Of a DNA stretch of 64,000 nt, positions 19,999-26,380 are shown piece after piece. Within the stretch, counting starts at the first letter, position 1. Every line of letters begins with the position of its first letter. Source of the DNA: an uncultured Planctomycetaceae bacterium (lineage in GTDB: Bacteria > Planctomycetota > Planctomycetia > Planctomycetales > Planctomycetaceae); the NCBI GenBank assembly GCA_963976765.1, contig CAXBME010000002.1, forward strand, positions 186,001 through 250,000, given 5' to 3'. Position numbers and translations under genes: made by a program. The notes beneath the pieces were generated by a model that made no database searches, was not told the origin of the DNA, and saw only the letters and a program-made list of their open reading frames with translations.

Positions 19999-20084
19999 GC
20001 CCAAGTGGCGGAATTGGCAGACGCGCTAGGTTCAGGTCCTAGTGGGATTCAACTCCCGTGGAGGTTCAAGTCCTCTCTTGGGTA
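19999..20084 (+). tRNA. tRNA-Leu (anticodon CAG)
   Basis: Acceptor GCCCAAG/CTTGGGT+A, D-arm TGGCGGAATTGGCAGACGC, anticodon arm CTAGG-TTCAGGT-CCTAG, long variable arm, T-arm GGAGG-TTCAAGT-CCTCT; CCA not encoded. Confidence 0.96.
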
Positions 20085-21356
20085 CTCGGCTGATAGAACA
20101 AGTTGGAACCCTTCGGAATTCAAAGGAATTTCGAGGGGTTCTTTCTTTTGACGGTCGCCTGTTTCCGGCCATTCCGACGTATGGTGCGCCGGATTCTGCG
20201 CCGCTTTTTTCGGGGCCGATGGAACAGCCACGTCGAGTGATGCCGCCTGCTCGAAATGGTCGTTGGTCGTCATCAGGTAATGCTTCAGAGCCACGGTCGG
20301 AGTATTTCCACACCAGGCGGTCACGACGTGCAATGGCAGTCTGCTGGCCAGTTCGGTTTCCCGAGTCGCTCGCAGTGCCTGAAACATCTTCGGCCACGGT
20401 TCCACGCCAGCCCTTCTGACGATTTTCGTGAACATCCGCCGCCAGTTCACGGAATCCCCCTGTTCGGCGAAAAGGATCGGTGCGGAGAACGGACAATCGA
20501 GCCCCGGCTGGACAATGTCCCGTAGTTCGATCAGCAGACTCAGGACAGGCTCGAAAATTCTCATCGTGCGCGTCGGCTTGCCTCGGGTTTCCATCTTCGG
20601 CTGGTGAATCACCATCGTCTGCTTTTCGAAATCGAGGTCACACCATCGCAGCCGCAAAGGTTCTGACGGTGTCCGCAATGCCTGCCAGCGAGCCAGAGCG
20701 AAGATGAGCTTCCATTGGAGCGTCGGGCACGCTTCCAGAATTTTCAGAGACAGTTCTTCATTCAGGAAGAATTGCCGCGACGGGTCGCTGGGAGCCGCTC
20801 CGCAGTTCCGCATGTCCGCGAATGGGTTCTCGACCAGCAGCCTGCGACGAATCGCCGCTCGAAAGAATTGTTTTGCCCGTGAGCAATGCCGCCGTGCGGT
20901 GTTTTCTGCCAACCGTTCCAGCATCCACACCCGCCACTGGTCACACTCACCCGGCGTAATGCTGGCCAGAGTCCGGTCACGTCCGAAGTGCTTTATCAGA
21001 TTGTTCGCCGCCTGCTGATAATTGATCGTGGTGCGTTCGCGAACGTCGGTACGGCCTGCAATGTACGAATCGAGAAATTCGCCCAGCGTTGTTTGCCCTG
21101 TCTGCCGTGGCTCGATGAGACCGACGTTGACGAGCCTGCGAAGCATCGCGCTGTCAATTGTGCTCAGCCATCGGCTGGTTTCATCATCGCAGGCGTGACC
21201 GGAGAATCGTTCTCCAACCAGTTGCTCAACTCGCCTGGCCACGTATTCGGCCTGCCGCTTCGTGACCTTGCCAAGCCGCAACGCCCGGCGTTTGCCTGAG
21301 CCATCGAAAAACAGAACCCGCTTCGAGCCGCCTTTATCGTTGCTGACGCTGGCCAT
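20049..21356 (-). CDS. Tyrosine recombinase / phage-type integrase
   Basis: SAM-like middle domain (T...Y..A...L..HFG..R.L..IT), catalytic-type motifs ALRTPSE, QPK, FQALRATRETE, W.GNT..VALKHY. The stop codon lies inside the tRNA. Start chosen at MASVS. Confidence 0.92.
   Translation of the reverse strand: MASVSNDKGGSKRVLFFDGSGKRRALRLGKVTKRQAEYVARRVEQLVGERFSGHACDDETSRWLSTIDSAMLRRLVNVGLIEPRQTGQTTLGEFLDSYIAGRTDVRERTTINYQQAANNLIKHFGRDRTLASITPGECDQWRVWMLERLAENTARRHCSRAKQFFRAAIRRRLLVENPFADMRNCGAAPSDPSRQFFLNEELSLKILEACPTLQWKLIFALARWQALRTPSEPLRLRWCDLDFEKQTMVIHQPKMETRGKPTRTMRIFEPVLSLLIELRDIVQPGLDCPFSAPILFAEQGDSVNWRRMFTKIVRRAGVEPWPKMFQALRATRETELASRLPLHVVTAWCGNTPTVALKHYLMTTNDHFEQAASLDVAVPSAPKKAAQNPAHHTSEWPETGDRQKKEPLEIPLNSEGFQLVLSAEYPREDLNLHGS
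20063..20086 (+). repeat. attL (tRNA 3' end)
   Basis: GGTTCAAGTCCTCTCTTGGGTACT, repeated at 25997-26023 with a 3-nt insertion. Confidence 0.9.
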
Positions 21357-21498
21357 TGAGAGGTTTCCTTCCTGAGAACGCGGCCACGGGATGTCTGGGT
21401 TCTCAGGACCAAACAGAGCCCGCAGCCGCAAAGGTGTTGAATCAAGGTATCGAGTCCGGGCCGAAGGGACCAGGCGCGTTTTGCTATCGAGTCGCAGC

Positions 21499-21563
21499 GT
21501 ACGAATTAAGCGAATTAACTCCGGCGCGTGTCACCCACGTGAGTTAATTCGTTTGTTTCGTAC
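21499..21563. repeat. Inverted repeat, candidate replication origin of the element
   Basis: GTACGAATTAAGCGAATTAACTC vs reverse complement of GAGTTAATTCGTTTGTTTCGTAC: 20/23 match, 19-nt spacer, immediately downstream of the helicase gene. Confidence 0.65.
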
Positions 21564-21564
21564 T

Positions 21565-22926
21565 TCACGATGCAAAGTAGGTTACCGCTGGCCTGCCAGC
21601 AGACTTTCCTTTTGACGAGTCACGACGAATCAGCCCGGAGCGATCCAGAACGCCGAGTGCTTCTCGTATTTCGCTGGCACTTTTGTTGCGGTTAAACAAC
21701 CCGGAGAGTTCCGTTGATGAAAGCCCCCGAGGCGCGACTTCTCGAAGTGCCAGCAGTATTTCATCCGCCGTACGGTTTCCGAGGCTACCGCCGAACGCCC
21801 ATCTGGCTGACGCCTCGCTGTACGCCCAGACGGCCAACGCCGCTTCAATGTGTGGCTCATCGATTTCGTTCGATTCGTCGAGGATTGCGTAGAGCATTGA
21901 AAGGCGCAGGACCTGAGCTTCCGCCCGCGTCGTGACCTGCCCGAAGATCCCCGGTCGGGGGGCAGTCAGTTTGCCGTAAACATCATGCCAGAGATTTCTG
22001 GCCTTGTCTGTGCGTACCATTCGCCCTGGAGTCTGGCCGAACGCGACCGCCCGCAGGATTCCGGCCGTGAGGTTGCTCAGGTTCCGAAGATGCAGTTCGC
22101 CTCCATCTGGTAACAACTTCGACCGCTTCGCGGCGTACCACAGAATGCGGTTTGCGAATCCGTTCGACACGTCAACCTTACTGAGAGTTGCTCGCAGTTC
22201 CTCCCGAGTCACATGGCCAATCAGATTGATGTGCGGGTGAGTCGCCCGGGCAGGTTCTCGTTTTGCCAGCGATCGGAGACTCTTCCCGTCCCAGGCATCC
22301 CGGATAACCGCGGACAGGTCGTTTTCCTTCCGCTGGCAAACCTTCAGGACTCCACCGAACTCCGACTCGATCACCAGCAGTCGTTTGTCGTCAACCTCAT
22401 CGAAATCTTCACCGTCCTGGCGATCACGAACATGCCAGACAAGCCCGGCACCTGATGTCAGACCGCTGACGACGTTCTCGGCAGCGAACTCCCCGCCGAG
22501 ATCCACCGCCGCGAAGACATGGCTGACCGCGTCGAGGGCCGTGCCTTTTCGGCCGGATGATGTTCCGCCAACGGCCACGCTAAACAGCCGAGCGTGGTGA
22601 TTGGTCCCACTGACCGGGAAGTAACGTTCCCGGCCAATCATTGCAGCCGAATAGCCGAGGAGGTGAAACAGCAACGCCGCTGCATCGGCTTCCGTTTCTG
22701 GCAGAACCACGTCGATAAATTCACCAGCAAGTCCATGAAACGCCGCATCCTCCAGTGCATCCGGCCAATCGTCATCCGGGTCTTCGCGAAGATCCACAAT
22801 TGATAACTGAGACTTCTGCCCCATGTCGTTACGAGTTTGATCACCATGTGTCGCCGCTCGCTGGCTGGCTGATTTCCGCCGTGCGTCGTCGTCTGACAGT
22901 GCCGCAAGTCGTGAAATGTGGCTCAT
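21565..22926 (-). CDS. DUF3987/YfjI-like P-loop helicase with C-terminal winged HTH (replication protein)
   Basis: Walker A-like VGGTSSGRKGTA, SGLTSGAGL, Walker B-like LLVIESEF, IRDAWDG, NGFANR, C-terminal HTH. The start overlaps the upstream stop (ATGA). Confidence 0.75.
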   Translation of the reverse strand: MSHISRLAALSDDDARRKSASQRAATHGDQTRNDMGQKSQLSIVDLREDPDDDWPDALEDAAFHGLAGEFIDVVLPETEADAAALLFHLLGYSAAMIGRERYFPVSGTNHHARLFSVAVGGTSSGRKGTALDAVSHVFAAVDLGGEFAAENVVSGLTSGAGLVWHVRDRQDGEDFDEVDDKRLLVIESEFGGVLKVCQRKENDLSAVIRDAWDGKSLRSLAKREPARATHPHINLIGHVTREELRATLSKVDVSNGFANRILWYAAKRSKLLPDGGELHLRNLSNLTAGILRAVAFGQTPGRMVRTDKARNLWHDVYGKLTAPRPGIFGQVTTRAEAQVLRLSMLYAILDESNEIDEPHIEAALAVWAYSEASARWAFGGSLGNRTADEILLALREVAPRGLSSTELSGLFNRNKSASEIREALGVLDRSGLIRRDSSKGKSAGRPAVTYFAS

Positions 22927-23207
22927 ACCGCGTCCTCCATTCGAAGCACCAATCTGAGTGCTTTCGCGAAGTCGGGGTTTTCGATGGCGGTCAACACGAC
23001 ACGTTCGCGCCACATCTCACTGTGCGACTTCAGGCGACCGTAGAATGCGGGCAGCCCGAGGTGCCTCATCTCTTTCCGAGGGGGAAGGCATTGATGGCCT
23101 GGGTAGTTTTCCACCAGCCACCGGAATTGATCTTTATCATTCGGAAATACCGGTAAGTTCTTTCTGATTCGTTCTTCGGCATCCTGTTGCCATTGTGAAA
23201 ACGTCAT
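22923..23207 (-). CDS. Hypothetical protein of the element
   Basis: 94-aa ORF translationally coupled (ATGA overlap) to the helicase gene. Confidence 0.55.
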   Translation of the reverse strand: MTFSQWQQDAEERIRKNLPVFPNDKDQFRWLVENYPGHQCLPPRKEMRHLGLPAFYGRLKSHSEMWRERVVLTAIENPDFAKALRLVLRMEDAV

Positions 23208-23316
23208 CTAAGATCTGAATCCTTAAATGTGCCTGAAGTGACGTGGGGCGTCGCAGGCGAAGAAATGATTGATTGCCGGCCCGGCCTTGTGCCGGGTCGG
23301 CATCGATTTCCGAGCG

Positions 23317-23523
23317 TCAGGAGTCCTGTGCTTCGGAATCGAGCCAGCGTTGCAGCTCGCTGACCGGGATCAGTCGCCGTGTTCCGACCTGGACGCATTT
23401 CAGCCGGCCCTCGGTTATGAGCCTGCTGACGGTCTTGGAGCACAGCCCAACCGCCTGACTGGATTCTTCGAGACTCAGGGCAAGCCTCGGGATCGGTGAC
23501 ACTCGGATTGAGGCGTCAGGCAT
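23317..23523 (-). CDS. Excisionase-like HTH DNA-binding protein
   Basis: LALSLEE..Q.VGL..KTV.RLI.EG.L...QVG.RRLIP..EL.RWL (HTH_17-like). Confidence 0.85.
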   Translation of the reverse strand: MPDASIRVSPIPRLALSLEESSQAVGLCSKTVSRLITEGRLKCVQVGTRRLIPVSELQRWLDSEAQDS

Positions 23524-23752
23524 GTGACACCCCGCTTCCAGTTTTGGCGAGGGTCGGCTTTACCTGTTCCCACTTTGAGCGGACAGGACACCCGTTATCG
23601 CACCAACTGGCCAACTCATGAGAGTCCCATCGCTTTAATCGCCCAAAAATAACAGGGGCTGGGATTCGTTGGTTCGCGTCGTCGTCACGAACTTTGCGGA
23701 GTGAGTAGCCAAGAAATTCCGCAACCTGCTGAGCATTCCAGAACCGTTTCAT
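23516..23752 (-). CDS. AlpA-like transcriptional regulator
   Basis: WNAQQVAEFLG.S.RKV.......IPAPV.FG...RW...EL..W...GCP; overlaps the next gene start. Confidence 0.8.
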   Translation of the reverse strand: MKRFWNAQQVAEFLGYSLRKVRDDDANQRIPAPVIFGRLKRWDSHELASWCDNGCPVRSKWEQVKPTLAKTGSGVSHA

Positions 23753-24811
23753 TTCATTCCCTCGCATCGACTAGGTGACTTGTAAGCAAGTCTTCGCGAC
23801 TCACTTCATTCACCTGTGAGCCTATGCACTTCAATGACTCCTGCAAGGATTTCTTACACCGCCGTTTCACCACATTTCATCGCGTATCAGCACAAAAAAA
23901 TTGGCAATATGTTCAAAACAGATTGGACCAATCGGCTCAAGATGATTTACATGGTGGATGATGGTGGTTGCACGGGACTAAAAATTCACAAAAAACATTG
24001 AAGCGCGATCGTCAGACTTCGGGCAGCGCCACAATCAAACTACACCGCGTCTGACTCGCCCACGGATGCTCGCCTGCCACGATGGCCACGGATTTCCAAC
24101 GGCTTGCGGTTTGCGATTCCAGTGCCGCCGAAAACTCACTTCGAAAGTCGAGTCTTCAGACGGTGACCATCGCAACGCTGGTATTGCTCAAAGCGCTGCG
24201 GCGAGCGTTCCGGGAGTATCTCGTGTACTCCCGGAATTCTGCGTCTGCAATGTGGCGCGTGGATAACGAGTCAGGCAACGCTGAGGCCGATTCCTGAGTC
24301 TGTGGTCTGCATGAAGTATCCCTACTGCGAGCGACCGACAGCGTGGTGAAACGGAGTCGATGACTCGTAAATCCTAAGCACGACACGGGCGGAAAATTCC
24401 CGTGCGGTGACGGTGCCCCGAGGCTCTTTGACGGCGGCCTGGGGGGGCCGGTGGGGGCCACCTGGACGCGGTTTCCTGGCAGGGTCCTCCGGCATCGATA
24501 CGTCGGCCCGCGGTTATGTAATCGCAAAAAACGTGTCGACAGGGGTGAAAAAATGCGCCTCACTCCTCACTCCCGCCCGCCGCCACGGAGACGAAAGAGC
24601 GAGTTGAATAACGAATTCCCTGTGCGTCGAGTGGTTCAACGTGTTCTCACTCGAAACCGCGCGTCTCACCAGCCTCGGCACCGGTAACCGCAACTCCCGC
24701 AACGAGGTGAACTGCTGTACGATGGATTTCCACCGAGTTCAGGCCACACGGCAAATGCCGACGACGCACAAAGGCCACTCCGGAATTCAGAACGGAGGGA
24801 GCAAACGCACC

Positions 24812-25735
24812 ATGATTGAATTCACCTGCCCACACTGTGGTCGAAGCGGAAAAGCCCCGGTCGAGTCAGCAGGCAAGCTGGCCAAATGTAAGTGCGAGGG
24901 GCAGTTTCATTTGCCACCCATCCCGACAACGGACGCCTCCGCCGAAAACGCTACAGAACAGCCCATCGACGATTCTGTACCTCTTGAGCCCGCCGCGGAG
25001 CCTGTTGAACATACCACCCACCCCACTGACCCATGGATGATGCGATCGACCATTATTGCCAACTGGGTGATTGTGACGACTGGTGGTGCGCTCCTGGTAC
25101 TGCTCCTTGTGTTGGCGCAATCTCATTTCGCATTGAATGATCAGGACCGGAAGTCAGAAGTGGCCGGTAAAGCAATCGCCGATGTCCTGATCGAAGAGGT
25201 CATTGCTGATAATGACTCAGAACCAGAAAAGCCTCCTATCGTTCAATTTGAAACACTCGGTGTAAGTGAAGGCGTCTTAATTGATGCACTTAGAACGATG
25301 GCTTCCAGTCAAGTGTCTCCGCTTCATTTCTTTTACTTCGGACGAAACGCCGCTTCCGAAGATCTTGGATTACCCTACGTCATCTTTGCGGATTCAGGTT
25401 CCGGAATCATTGTGACATGGCAGGGAAAACCAACTGATCTGACTCAGATCAGAGTCGGGATTAGCGCCAAATTGTTGGACAACGAAGAAACAGATAGTGC
25501 TCGGAAATTTGACAGGACGTTACCTCTGGTTGTGAATGCAATTAATCCGTCAGCGAAATACGACGTGACGAACTGGCTGAATGAGAATTTTGCACGAGCG
25601 ATTCTTACACCGGGCGGATTATCGACTTCAATTCGCGGCGTTGAATACTCGGTTTACACAACCAGATCAGAAGATGACATGACCATGTGGATGAGGATGA
25701 GATCGGCCAGCGGTGATTTTCCAATTGATCCGTGA
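24812..25735 (+). CDS. Cargo membrane protein with N-terminal zinc ribbon
   Basis: MIEFTCPHCG...GK.AKCKC zinc ribbon, Pro-rich linker, one TM helix, soluble C-terminal domain; GGAGG upstream. Confidence 0.7.
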   Translation: MIEFTCPHCGRSGKAPVESAGKLAKCKCEGQFHLPPIPTTDASAENATEQPIDDSVPLEPAAEPVEHTTHPTDPWMMRSTIIANWVIVTTGGALLVLLLVLAQSHFALNDQDRKSEVAGKAIADVLIEEVIADNDSEPEKPPIVQFETLGVSEGVLIDALRTMASSQVSPLHFFYFGRNAASEDLGLPYVIFADSGSGIIVTWQGKPTDLTQIRVGISAKLLDNEETDSARKFDRTLPLVVNAINPSAKYDVTNWLNENFARAILTPGGLSTSIRGVEYSVYTTRSEDDMTMWMRMRSASGDFPIDP

Positions 25736-25781
25736 CTCTGATCGCAATCGGCTTGCAGTTGAGTTTCTGTAGCATGGCCCG

Positions 25782-26009
25782 CTACGGCTTTCCGGCCTGA
25801 CCAGTCTGCCGGCAAACCGCGGGATCGCTCTGAGCCAACCGCAGAATCTCACTGACGGTCGAGTCCGACAGCCCCGGCCAAACATCATTCAACAGCCGCA
25901 ACGCGGCCTCCCGTGCATGAGGTGCGCCGGATTCTGCGCCACCGGGTGACACCGGCAAGCCGCAACCTGTTGAGTCTTCAGGCGTTTCCGTCGATCGGTT
26001 CAAGTCAAC
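25782..26009 (-). other. Orphan in-frame C-terminal module of the integrase, joined on excision
   Basis: Open frame from the attR core (VDLNRSTETP...GGAESGA...LRLLNDVWPGLSDSTVSEILRLA...GKP*), in phase with integrase codons across the shared core. Confidence 0.65.
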
Positions 26010-26023
26010 CTCTCTTGGGTACT
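25997..26023 (+). repeat. attR (duplicate of tRNA 3' end)
   Basis: GGTTCAAGTC-AAC-CTCTCTTGGGTACT. Confidence 0.9.
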
Positions 26024-26030
26024 GAAAAAT

Positions 26031-26067
26031 AAAGGACTTACGTCGAATTCGGCGTAAGTCCTTTTTT
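26031..26067 (+). terminator. Rho-independent terminator, probably the displaced original tRNA-Leu terminator
   Basis: AAAGGACTTACGTCG-AATT-CGGCGTAAGTCCTTTTTT directly after attR. Confidence 0.8.
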
Positions 26068-26380
26068 CGTTGGCACGTCGTTCAGTGAGCGTATTGTGGG
26101 CGCTGTTGGATTCGAGCACGGTTTGCGTCGACAGTCGACGCTTACTTCTGACTCCTATGTTTGACTCGTTTCAAGCGATCGCAGGAGTCGAAAAATGGCG
26201 TGAGACAAAACGTGTTGCCGATACTTCGTACAACCACAATGTGATACTTGCAGTCCCACTTCACGTGGGACTGACTTTGCCAACCCTCGTCGCGTACCAC
26301 GGGCTGCCTGCAACCACCTCTTACCGGATTTTATTTTCTGGCGTTGAGGTGGTGCTGCCGGTCAATAATCATGGCCTGCC

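Follow-up and report, generated by a model that had tools for sequence, protein, structure and literature searches.

The 64,000-nucleotide stretch of planctomycete DNA analyzed here, referred to as the window, contains a 5.9-kb mobile element inserted in a tRNA-Leu(CAG) gene. This small integrative element, which targets a tRNA gene, carries an integrase, two excisionase-like HTH genes, a primase-like gene, and one cargo gene; no capsid gene was found in it. In window coordinates, the features are:

19999..20085, plus strand: tRNA-Leu(CAG), the target gene, remade at the integrase-side junction
20049..21356, minus strand: tyrosine integrase in its integrated (short) form, 435 aa, ATG at 21356, final 7 residues from the tRNA antisense strand
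20063..20086: integrase-side att junction, with a 10-bp T-loop block (20063–20072) and a 15-bp core (20072–20086)
20105..20142, plus strand: terminator-like hairpin for the tRNA, supplied by the element; the integrase tail reads through it antisense
20183..20202: arm-type repeat of the integrase-side arm, two hexamers with a 12-bp period, a presumed binding site
21565..22926, minus strand: primase/helicase-like protein (PHROG primase families, best E 1e-8)
22923..23207, minus strand: 94-aa ORF, no family
23317..23523, minus strand: excisionase-family HTH protein (HTH_17; TIGR01764 above cut-off), candidate directionality factor
23516..23767, minus strand: second small DNA-binding, excisionase-like regulator
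24812..25735, plus strand: cargo ORF of 307 aa that falls in no family, Cys-rich at the N-terminus and with a single hydrophobic segment
25782..26008, minus strand: stranded integrase 3' end, 75 codons, rejoined in frame upon excision
25827..25919, minus strand: conserved WPxL two-helix hairpin, residues 29–59 of a 73-aa ORF
25921..25940: arm-type repeat of the far arm, identical to 20183–20202 and translated in another frame (GAESGA)
25997..26023: far att junction, with the T-loop block, a 3-nt insertion, and the 15-bp core (26009–26023)
26031..26064, plus strand: displaced host terminator-like hairpin, matching the empty site of L310

The ends of the element are confirmed because L310, a genome of the same genus, carries the empty site, in which the same tRNA is followed directly by the flank seen here past 26023. 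The two att copies share the 15-bp block (20072–20086 and 26009–26023) and the 10-bp T-loop block (20063–20072 and 25997–26006), which three additional nucleotides separate at the right end. As an earlier note on this DNA had reported, this insertion is the sole difference between the copies. The reading frame is kept with either block. Crossover most likely occurs where that note had placed it, within the 15-bp core at the T/acceptor junction.

The integrase ORF stops at 20049, antisense within the tRNA, which it overlaps by about 37 nt. Recomputation reproduced the central observation of the earlier note, namely that the integrase reads through attL as a 435-aa protein and that joining the two ends at the core extends it into the otherwise separate ORF at 25782–26003. 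Excision computed at the 15-bp block exchanges 7 residues for 75 and yields 503 aa, excision at the 10-bp block yields 502 aa, and both products are in frame with this ORF; the two remaining frames past the right-hand core shut after 1 and 8 codons.

The crossover lies about 68 codons past the catalytic tyrosine, and the catalytic domains all remain together. In the family alignment, R228, K254, R329, and Y360 are invariant across 32 sequences, and all four fall within the 435-aa integrated form; the histidine of the HxxR motif is a glutamine in this integrase and Q or H among relatives. PF00589 scores 24.9 bits, slightly below its cut-off of 27.1, and the SAM domains exceed theirs. A model of a natural relative (L172) shows three N-terminal strands plus helices and matches lambda Int (1z1b) in Foldseek with an E value of 3e-11 over 368 columns, which predicts an arm-binding, core-binding, and catalytic fold for the integrase. 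In the AlphaFold prediction of a natural long form, the core is followed by a disordered linker and by the hairpin at good confidence.

Conservation of the fused frame was assessed in 32 deduplicated elements found through their integrases, which are at most 60% identical (median 43%) and are associated with nine tRNA isotypes. Left out before counting were two duplicates (L130 and L133), one element whose 13-bp match lay 2.2 kb off, away from the tRNA 3' end, and was judged a chance occurrence (L107), and two with an att repeat whose integrases stop short of the core (L043 and L065). L089 was excluded as identical to the window. The integrase frame is open for at least 45 codons beyond the far att copy in 31 of the 32, compared with 8 and 7 of 32 for the other two frames (15 of 64 control frames), and because of this difference the open fused frame is not attributable to chance. 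Relative to the tRNA, a single frame is common to 29 of the 32 elements, and related elements do not count as independent. The hairpin profile reaches at least 10 bits in 23 of 32 integrase frames and in 0 of 64 other frames, a comparison that is partly circular in that the profile was built from database proteins with in-frame extensions, a few of which are tested loci. Of the nine elements scoring below 10 bits, some have divergent W-hairpins, others have different helices, and one has only 29 codons. In the integrated forms (n = 32), 7–23 codons separate the start of the core from the stop.

The converse search, from module to integrase, began with 22 modules, 7 of which had no repeat in the sequence examined and 1 of which, C4, had only a non-tRNA repeat. 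All 14 elements whose att pair derives from a tRNA join to an integrase, and 12 of these fusions involve a second integrase clade that is 19% identical. The hairpin keeps to the frame of its integrase in all three antisense frames and also in three cases of sense orientation, which each use a different frame. Seven contigs, six of them distinct viral ones and one from a MAG, encode integrase and W-hairpin as a single ORF with no adjoining tRNA, and both arm repeats are present in the six viral long-form contigs. For the second clade, no full-length natural fusion was found among 37 viral loci, the only candidates being database fragments (P0094, P0074, and P0077). Word-index protein searches, which have low sensitivity, returned no full-length fusion, and such proteins do exist in the loci. 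Among public runs, two DNA runs of one study and no RNA run were listed as containing the sequence; the contigs of these two contained neither an attP nor an attB joint, although absence cannot be demonstrated from contigs. The expectation that circularized relatives would fuse the integrase in frame to a WPxL module above chance was thus borne out in both search directions and at the level of protein conservation, and the fusion is almost certainly real and selected.

What is conserved in the tail is the hairpin. The earlier note had described a 75-aa C-terminal module with an amphipathic helical hairpin; the hairpin itself stands, but it accounts for only about 30 of the 75 residues, the remainder being a variable linker that shares its DNA with a repeat (20183–20202 = 25921–25940) that had gone unmentioned. 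The linker measures about 90–145 residues among elements, with about 110 aa disordered here. Judged from its sequence, the GAESGA motif is this arm-type repeat overprinted; a block of 20–29 bp is common to both arms in 24 of 32 elements, compared with maxima of 13–17 bp after shuffling. Across 74 hairpins, which had been chosen by profile, the tryptophan and two leucines are near invariant, information at codon positions 1, 2, and 3 amounts to 0.67, 0.95, and 0.31 bits, synonymous codons are randomized (34.0% identical versus 33.6% expected), and the other two frames are interrupted by stops in 39 and 31 cases. By these codon statistics, the hairpin is conserved as protein.

Comparisons with known families gave no discriminating match for the hairpin. 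No Pfam family matches more than 1 of 118 hairpin members, Foldseek gave no match with this very short query, and a PDB sequence search gave a single match at an E value of 0.73. The best VIA-align hit of the short hairpin was NblA (Z 3.5, rmsd 4.5, 51 aligned), from which other helical pairs are not distinguishable. Searches of the Atlas matched solely unnamed Planctomycetota clusters with scores below 0.9, and no credible hairpin was found in GenBank phages or plasmids. At an E value of 0.001 or better, 5,171 clusters match the hairpin, some of them falsely, such as a HEAT-repeat protein. The WPxL micro-ORFs near planctomycete tRNA islands that the earlier note mentioned do exist, and they are numerous. 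The idea that the hairpin repeats the W-containing helices of the integrase N-terminus was rejected, as these gave no profile match.

Based on these data, a model is proposed in which the integrase loses its tail on integration and regains it on excision, and in which this exchange steers its activity; we assign this reading a probability of roughly 0.6. By sequence, attP lies within the integrase gene near its 3' end, past a complete catalytic domain. The integrase encoded by the free circle carries a disordered linker of about 110 aa, overprinted on an arm site, the terminator, and the att core, followed by the WPxL helical hairpin. On integration, 7 residues encoded antisense in the tRNA take the place of the final 75 and the hairpin is left stranded 5.9 kb away; excision returns it. 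The long form would be efficient in attP × attB integration, and the short form would be damped and, as has been reported of Mx8, still sufficient for excision when an excisionase is present. That the fusion biases activity or direction is probable. The hairpin would serve as a tethered interaction module; self-association is its most likely mode of action and is put at somewhat less than even odds. A homodimer prediction for the hairpin (score 0.32, mark 0.42) was counted neither way. The element encodes its own excisionase-like proteins, and directionality therefore does not need a tail switch. Many viral homologues stop 13–40 residues past the catalytic tyrosine.

Alternatively, the hairpin may bind a conserved partner of host or element, such as a nucleoid protein, a protease adaptor, or a replication protein, or may set the half-life of the integrase, in which case the switch would govern the amount or location of the enzyme rather than synapsis. 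The near-invariant W and two leucines fit a specific partner, and the occurrence of one hairpin in two integrase clades just 19% identical, on a linker of such length, makes a fixed surface of the integrase core an unlikely target. However, other amphipathic helices replace the hairpin in some elements and in Mx8, which is easier to reconcile with a generic interaction than with a specific host target, and neither the long nor the short form has a conserved degron-like end at its C-terminus. This alternative is considered unlikely.

Still less weight is given to the possibility that the integrated element also produces the stranded hairpin by itself, as a small free protein from the far junction, and that this protein acts in trans, for example by inhibiting excision or the integrases of superinfecting elements. 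An in-frame ATG, GTG, or TTG lies near the core at 24 of 32 far junctions, so that a free peptide could be made; here the codon is TTG at 26003, after a purine-rich stretch within the core, and gene callers call thousands of such small proteins. Yet the same codons occur internally at 25 of 32 integrase-side junctions and so stem from the sequence of the tRNA 3' end, the minus strand at the far junction has no promoter-like site, and a free peptide by itself leaves the covariation of frame with the integrase unexplained.

Retroregulation, as in lambda sib, offers a model for a switch acting mainly on the mRNA: the integrated int transcript, ending complementary to tRNA-Leu, would be destabilized, and the tail would be secondary. 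The antisense overlap described above and the 64 of 74 tRNA-adjacent integrases that read into the tRNA (10 stop before it) are in keeping with this, but protein-level conservation of the hairpin and the sense-orientation elements with the same hairpin are left unexplained, and the idea is regarded as very improbable. An accidental open frame, or conservation of a DNA site rather than a protein, draws on the GAESGA repeat, whose reading frame differs between the arms, and on GC-rich DNA making long frames, as in the 15 control frames, but is already contradicted for the hairpin by the in-frame counts (31/32 and 14/14), the natural long forms, the random synonymous codons, and the stops in other frames.

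The tail-exchange model has its closest precedent in the myxophage Mx8, whose tyrosine integrase gene contains attP in its 3' part and in which integration gives a new C-terminus without destroying the enzyme, as described in PMC6070905; the forms are known as IntP, giving way to IntX/IntR (Tojo 1996, Magrini 1999, Tojo and Komano 2003). Both traits recur here: attP is located in the 3' region of int past the catalytic domain, and a long native tail is exchanged for a short host-derived one (75 to 7). In the Mx8 protein, about 113 residues come after a GLEP motif that resembles the antisense peptide of the tRNA T-arm. The Mx8 tail is unrelated: the hairpin profile finds no match in it, the top score of 1.8 bits falling in another part of the protein, and the relationship between the integrases themselves is distant. 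Here, in contrast, one conserved hairpin recurs across Planctomycetota in two integrase clades, at many tRNA targets, and in both orientations.

The architecture also resembles that of lambda-type arm-binding integrases (Islander class J), with a three-domain fold that matches the Int proteins of lambda and Tn1549, arm-type repeats that flank the core, an excisionase-like gene, and a subsite at the tRNA T/acceptor junction. In lambda-type systems the gene ends ahead of attP and recombination leaves it unchanged, whereas here it spans attP and its tail is altered. Of the two precedents named by the earlier note, Mx8 fits and SSV1 fits less well. The "suicidal" archaeal integrases of SSV1, pTN3, and pT26-2 likewise have att inside the integrase gene and are split on integration (PMC8371274), but the SSV1-type split, as presented there, parts Int(N) from the catalytic Int(C) into inactive halves, whereas the 435-aa form retains the whole catalytic domain with all catalytic residues. 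Self-disrupting integrases are described in that one review as exclusively archaeal, and the literature cited treats self-editing of an integrase by its own recombination as a trait of Mx8 and archaeal SSV-type elements. What is new, on the comparisons made here, is the Mx8 layout with an unrelated, apparently undescribed tail domain that is common to many elements across a bacterial phylum.

Tail swapping is here the common layout for two integrase clades in Planctomycetota, and the question raised by Mx8, the role of the tail, can now be put to the test, since there are many natural pairs and one near-invariant residue to work with. The genome-annotated integrases of these elements are truncated forms, with a large set of hypothetical small ORFs as their tails, and mining them as tools would lead to the short form being cloned. 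More generally, but doubtfully, the hairpin could be a portable self-associating switch domain of about 30 aa that distant integrase clades of Planctomycetota park across attP in any frame and either orientation, such that one recombination switches both the direction of the enzyme and its oligomeric state, and the stranded copy may counter incoming elements in trans. If so, thousands of "hypothetical small proteins" would be integrase tails cut off by recombination, and one-way tyrosine integrases could be built with the domain as a part.

The integrase of the ~5.9-kb element terminates inside the tRNA gene at which the element resides:

19999–20085, tRNA-Leu(CAG), the sole tRNA in the window
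ATG 21356 to stop 20049, minus strand, tyrosine integrase ORF of 435 aa, with its stop inside the tRNA

Residues R228, K254, R329, and Y360 of this integrase are unchanged in an alignment of 32 relatives. A copy of the tRNA 3' end, located 5,937 bp away, is made up of two blocks, of 15 bp and 10 bp, with 3 extra nucleotides between them. Computed excision yields a 503-aa protein if the ends are joined at the 15-bp block and a 502-aa protein at the 10-bp block, with ORF 25782–26003, which holds the stranded tail, in frame with both. Recomputation agrees with the earlier note, which had described both the 435-aa integrase stopping in the tRNA and the in-frame 503-aa product. The element ends are fixed by L310, a locus in a same-genus genome that carries an empty site and the same downstream flank as the window.

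That the att copies differ by a frame-preserving 3-nt insertion, as had been proposed, is supported by database protein P0001 (83% identity to the stranded ORF), which reads across the junction in a close relative without the additional codon; the insertion is therefore a frame-preserving polymorphism. Identity between att copies over 34 elements defines a common overlap 7–13 nt from the tRNA 3' end, at the T/acceptor junction, the lower bound resting on only two elements. The crossover is thereby assigned to the 15-bp core, which favors 503 aa over 502 aa for the excised form. Both arms contain an element-specific DNA repeat of 12-bp period, the GAESGA motif, whose reading frames usually differ between the arms and which behaves as expected for putative arm-type integrase sites.

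The element interior comprises a primase-like gene, a pair of small genes for excisionase-like DNA-binding proteins, and a single cargo ORF. No capsid family was matched among the element ORFs scanned, and the element appears to resemble a small satellite-like island. Upstream of the integrase start lies a 32-bp inverted repeat (21499–21563, 78% complementary), a candidate operator or origin. Just beyond the element, a short minus-strand ORF (26142–26300) lacks a match in a Pfam search; its motif resembles an IS200-type transposase start, and DNA related to its region also adjoins other tRNAs of this genome.

Ten paralogous integrases adjoin tRNAs in the window's genome; nine end within the tRNA antisense strand and one continues beyond, and the extension is in frame in all six for which a second att copy could be found. 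Relatives were sampled in two sets, one of 60 stretches taken from family members and one of 162 loci drawn from collections of genomes, viruses, and metagenomes; of the 80 genome records, 77 bear Planctomycetota lineages in their titles. Once duplicates had been removed, along with a single repeat judged to be chance and two elements with an integrase ending before the core, the integrase-first set contained 32 elements (integrase identity at most 60%, nine tRNA isotypes). At least 45 open codons followed the far core in the integrase frame of 31/32 elements, compared with 8/32 and 7/32 in the other frames; in-silico circularization of related tRNA islands, suggested in the earlier note, thus reveals in-frame fusion beyond chance. 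A profile of the ~30-aa hairpin scored at least 10 bits in the integrase frame in 23/32 and in other frames in none, although this comparison is partly circular and one tRNA-relative frame is common to 29/32. For these reasons, the reverse, module-first test was run.

Profile matches occurred in 38 of 151 genomes, representing many families of Planctomycetota. Among 22 modules traced into elements (18 from other genomes, 4 from the window's), 14 had a tRNA-derived att repeat within the available DNA, and in all 14, including one decayed remnant and two close kin, the module continued the frame of an integrase C-terminus. A second clade, with 19% identity to the window's clade in a profile alignment, accounts for 12 of the integrases; PF00589 was confirmed for three of them. 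Three second-clade elements are reversed in orientation, with the hairpin downstream of the intact tRNA and no two of them in the same frame. When the two sets are combined, the hairpin tracks the integrase frame in all three antisense frames, for which selection on the integrase–hairpin fusion is the simplest reading. Fusions in two clades and the breadth of the matches bear out the proposal of a widespread split-integrase system. One sense-orientation element carries a second tyrosine-recombinase-like ORF, by motif, immediately upstream of its integrase (L282:5214–6464).

Long forms also exist as single ORFs. Six distinct contigs among 80 viral loci (L172, L179/180, L182, L184/185, L205, and L207) encode 479–508 aa comprising integrase, linker, tRNA-like core, and W-hairpin, with no adjoining tRNA; phage-type genes flank both sides in L180. 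L239 carries a fusion with a variant helix pair, and a fusion is also present on MAG contig L095. Among the best 150 database hits, first-clade C-termini run into the hairpin in P0013, P0018, P0050, P0051, P0062, and P0115, as do second-clade-like tails in P0094, P0074, and P0077. The long-form contigs could instead derive from head-to-tail arrays; the junction exists as DNA in both cases. Viral long forms L219, L222, and L217 have basic, Arg-rich helical tails in place of the WPxL hairpin.

The helical hairpin anticipated for the fused tail is recovered by structure prediction, both in natural long form L172 (lambda-like three-domain core 1–373, disordered linker, confident two-helix hairpin 463–494) and in the window's module (helices 29–44 and 47–59). 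Across 74 non-redundant, profile-selected hairpins, conservation is highest at second and lowest at third codon positions, and agreement at synonymous codons does not exceed that predicted from pooled usage. P0010, P0035, and P0059 each show two profile-matched stretches. Integrases of this kind do not always have the tail: the reading frame closes ahead of the tRNA in 10 of 74 tRNA-adjacent integrases, many viral homologues extend only slightly beyond the catalytic Tyr, and in 9 of 32 elements the tail is weak, different, or short.

Related integrase-side arms follow the same tRNA-Leu in six of seven same-genus genomes (L303, L305–L309), with L310 empty; the site is an integration hotspot. 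Integrase elements or remnants linked to tRNAs, from both clades, number at least 11 in the window's genome, on contigs C2, C4, C5, C16, C17, C21, C31, C40, C42, and C44, with seven hairpin matches; C5 also arrays 38 tRNA genes in ~5 kb (82893–88140). At L297, L285, and L293, a single tRNA hosts several att copies and elements arranged in tandem or nested, and L297 has two hairpins.

The likeness to Mx8 and SSV1 drawn in the earlier note holds better for the former. Mx8 has the same layout, and its integrase also has a GLEP motif and a ~113-residue tail, which gives no match to the hairpin. In SSV-type integrases, the split falls ahead of the catalytic domain (PMC8371274), unlike in the window integrase. 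The consulted part of the Islander report names only Mx8 and SSV as integrases extending across attP (PMC4383910). A literature search of listings and abstract openings in a mostly open-access collection returned no account of such planctomycete integrases or of the hairpin, and TIGER/Islander tables may already list split genes of this type; by word search, "planctomycet" and "Mx8" are both absent from PMC8138268, PMC12884075, and PMC13626063.

At the level of predicted proteins, recombination is shown to add or remove a selected hairpin while leaving the rest of the integrase intact. In the proposed mechanism, the long form would drive integration, and the short form would be damped yet able to excise; the element's own excisionase candidate counts against a switch role. 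The preferred molecular role is self-association, because the hairpin is amphipathic, sits on a long tether, is common to distant clades, can give way to other helices, and is present as four tandem copies in P0102. The latter, an unrelated-looking database protein of 286 aa, has a lipoprotein-like N-terminus and carries its WPxL hairpins C-terminally, with no Pfam family above cut-off. The main rival holds that the hairpin meets a host partner or affects stability. Whichever putative role applies, the comparative data argue that the fusion is real, selected, and widespread, and that it represents an Mx8-like arrangement made new by its undescribed conserved domain.
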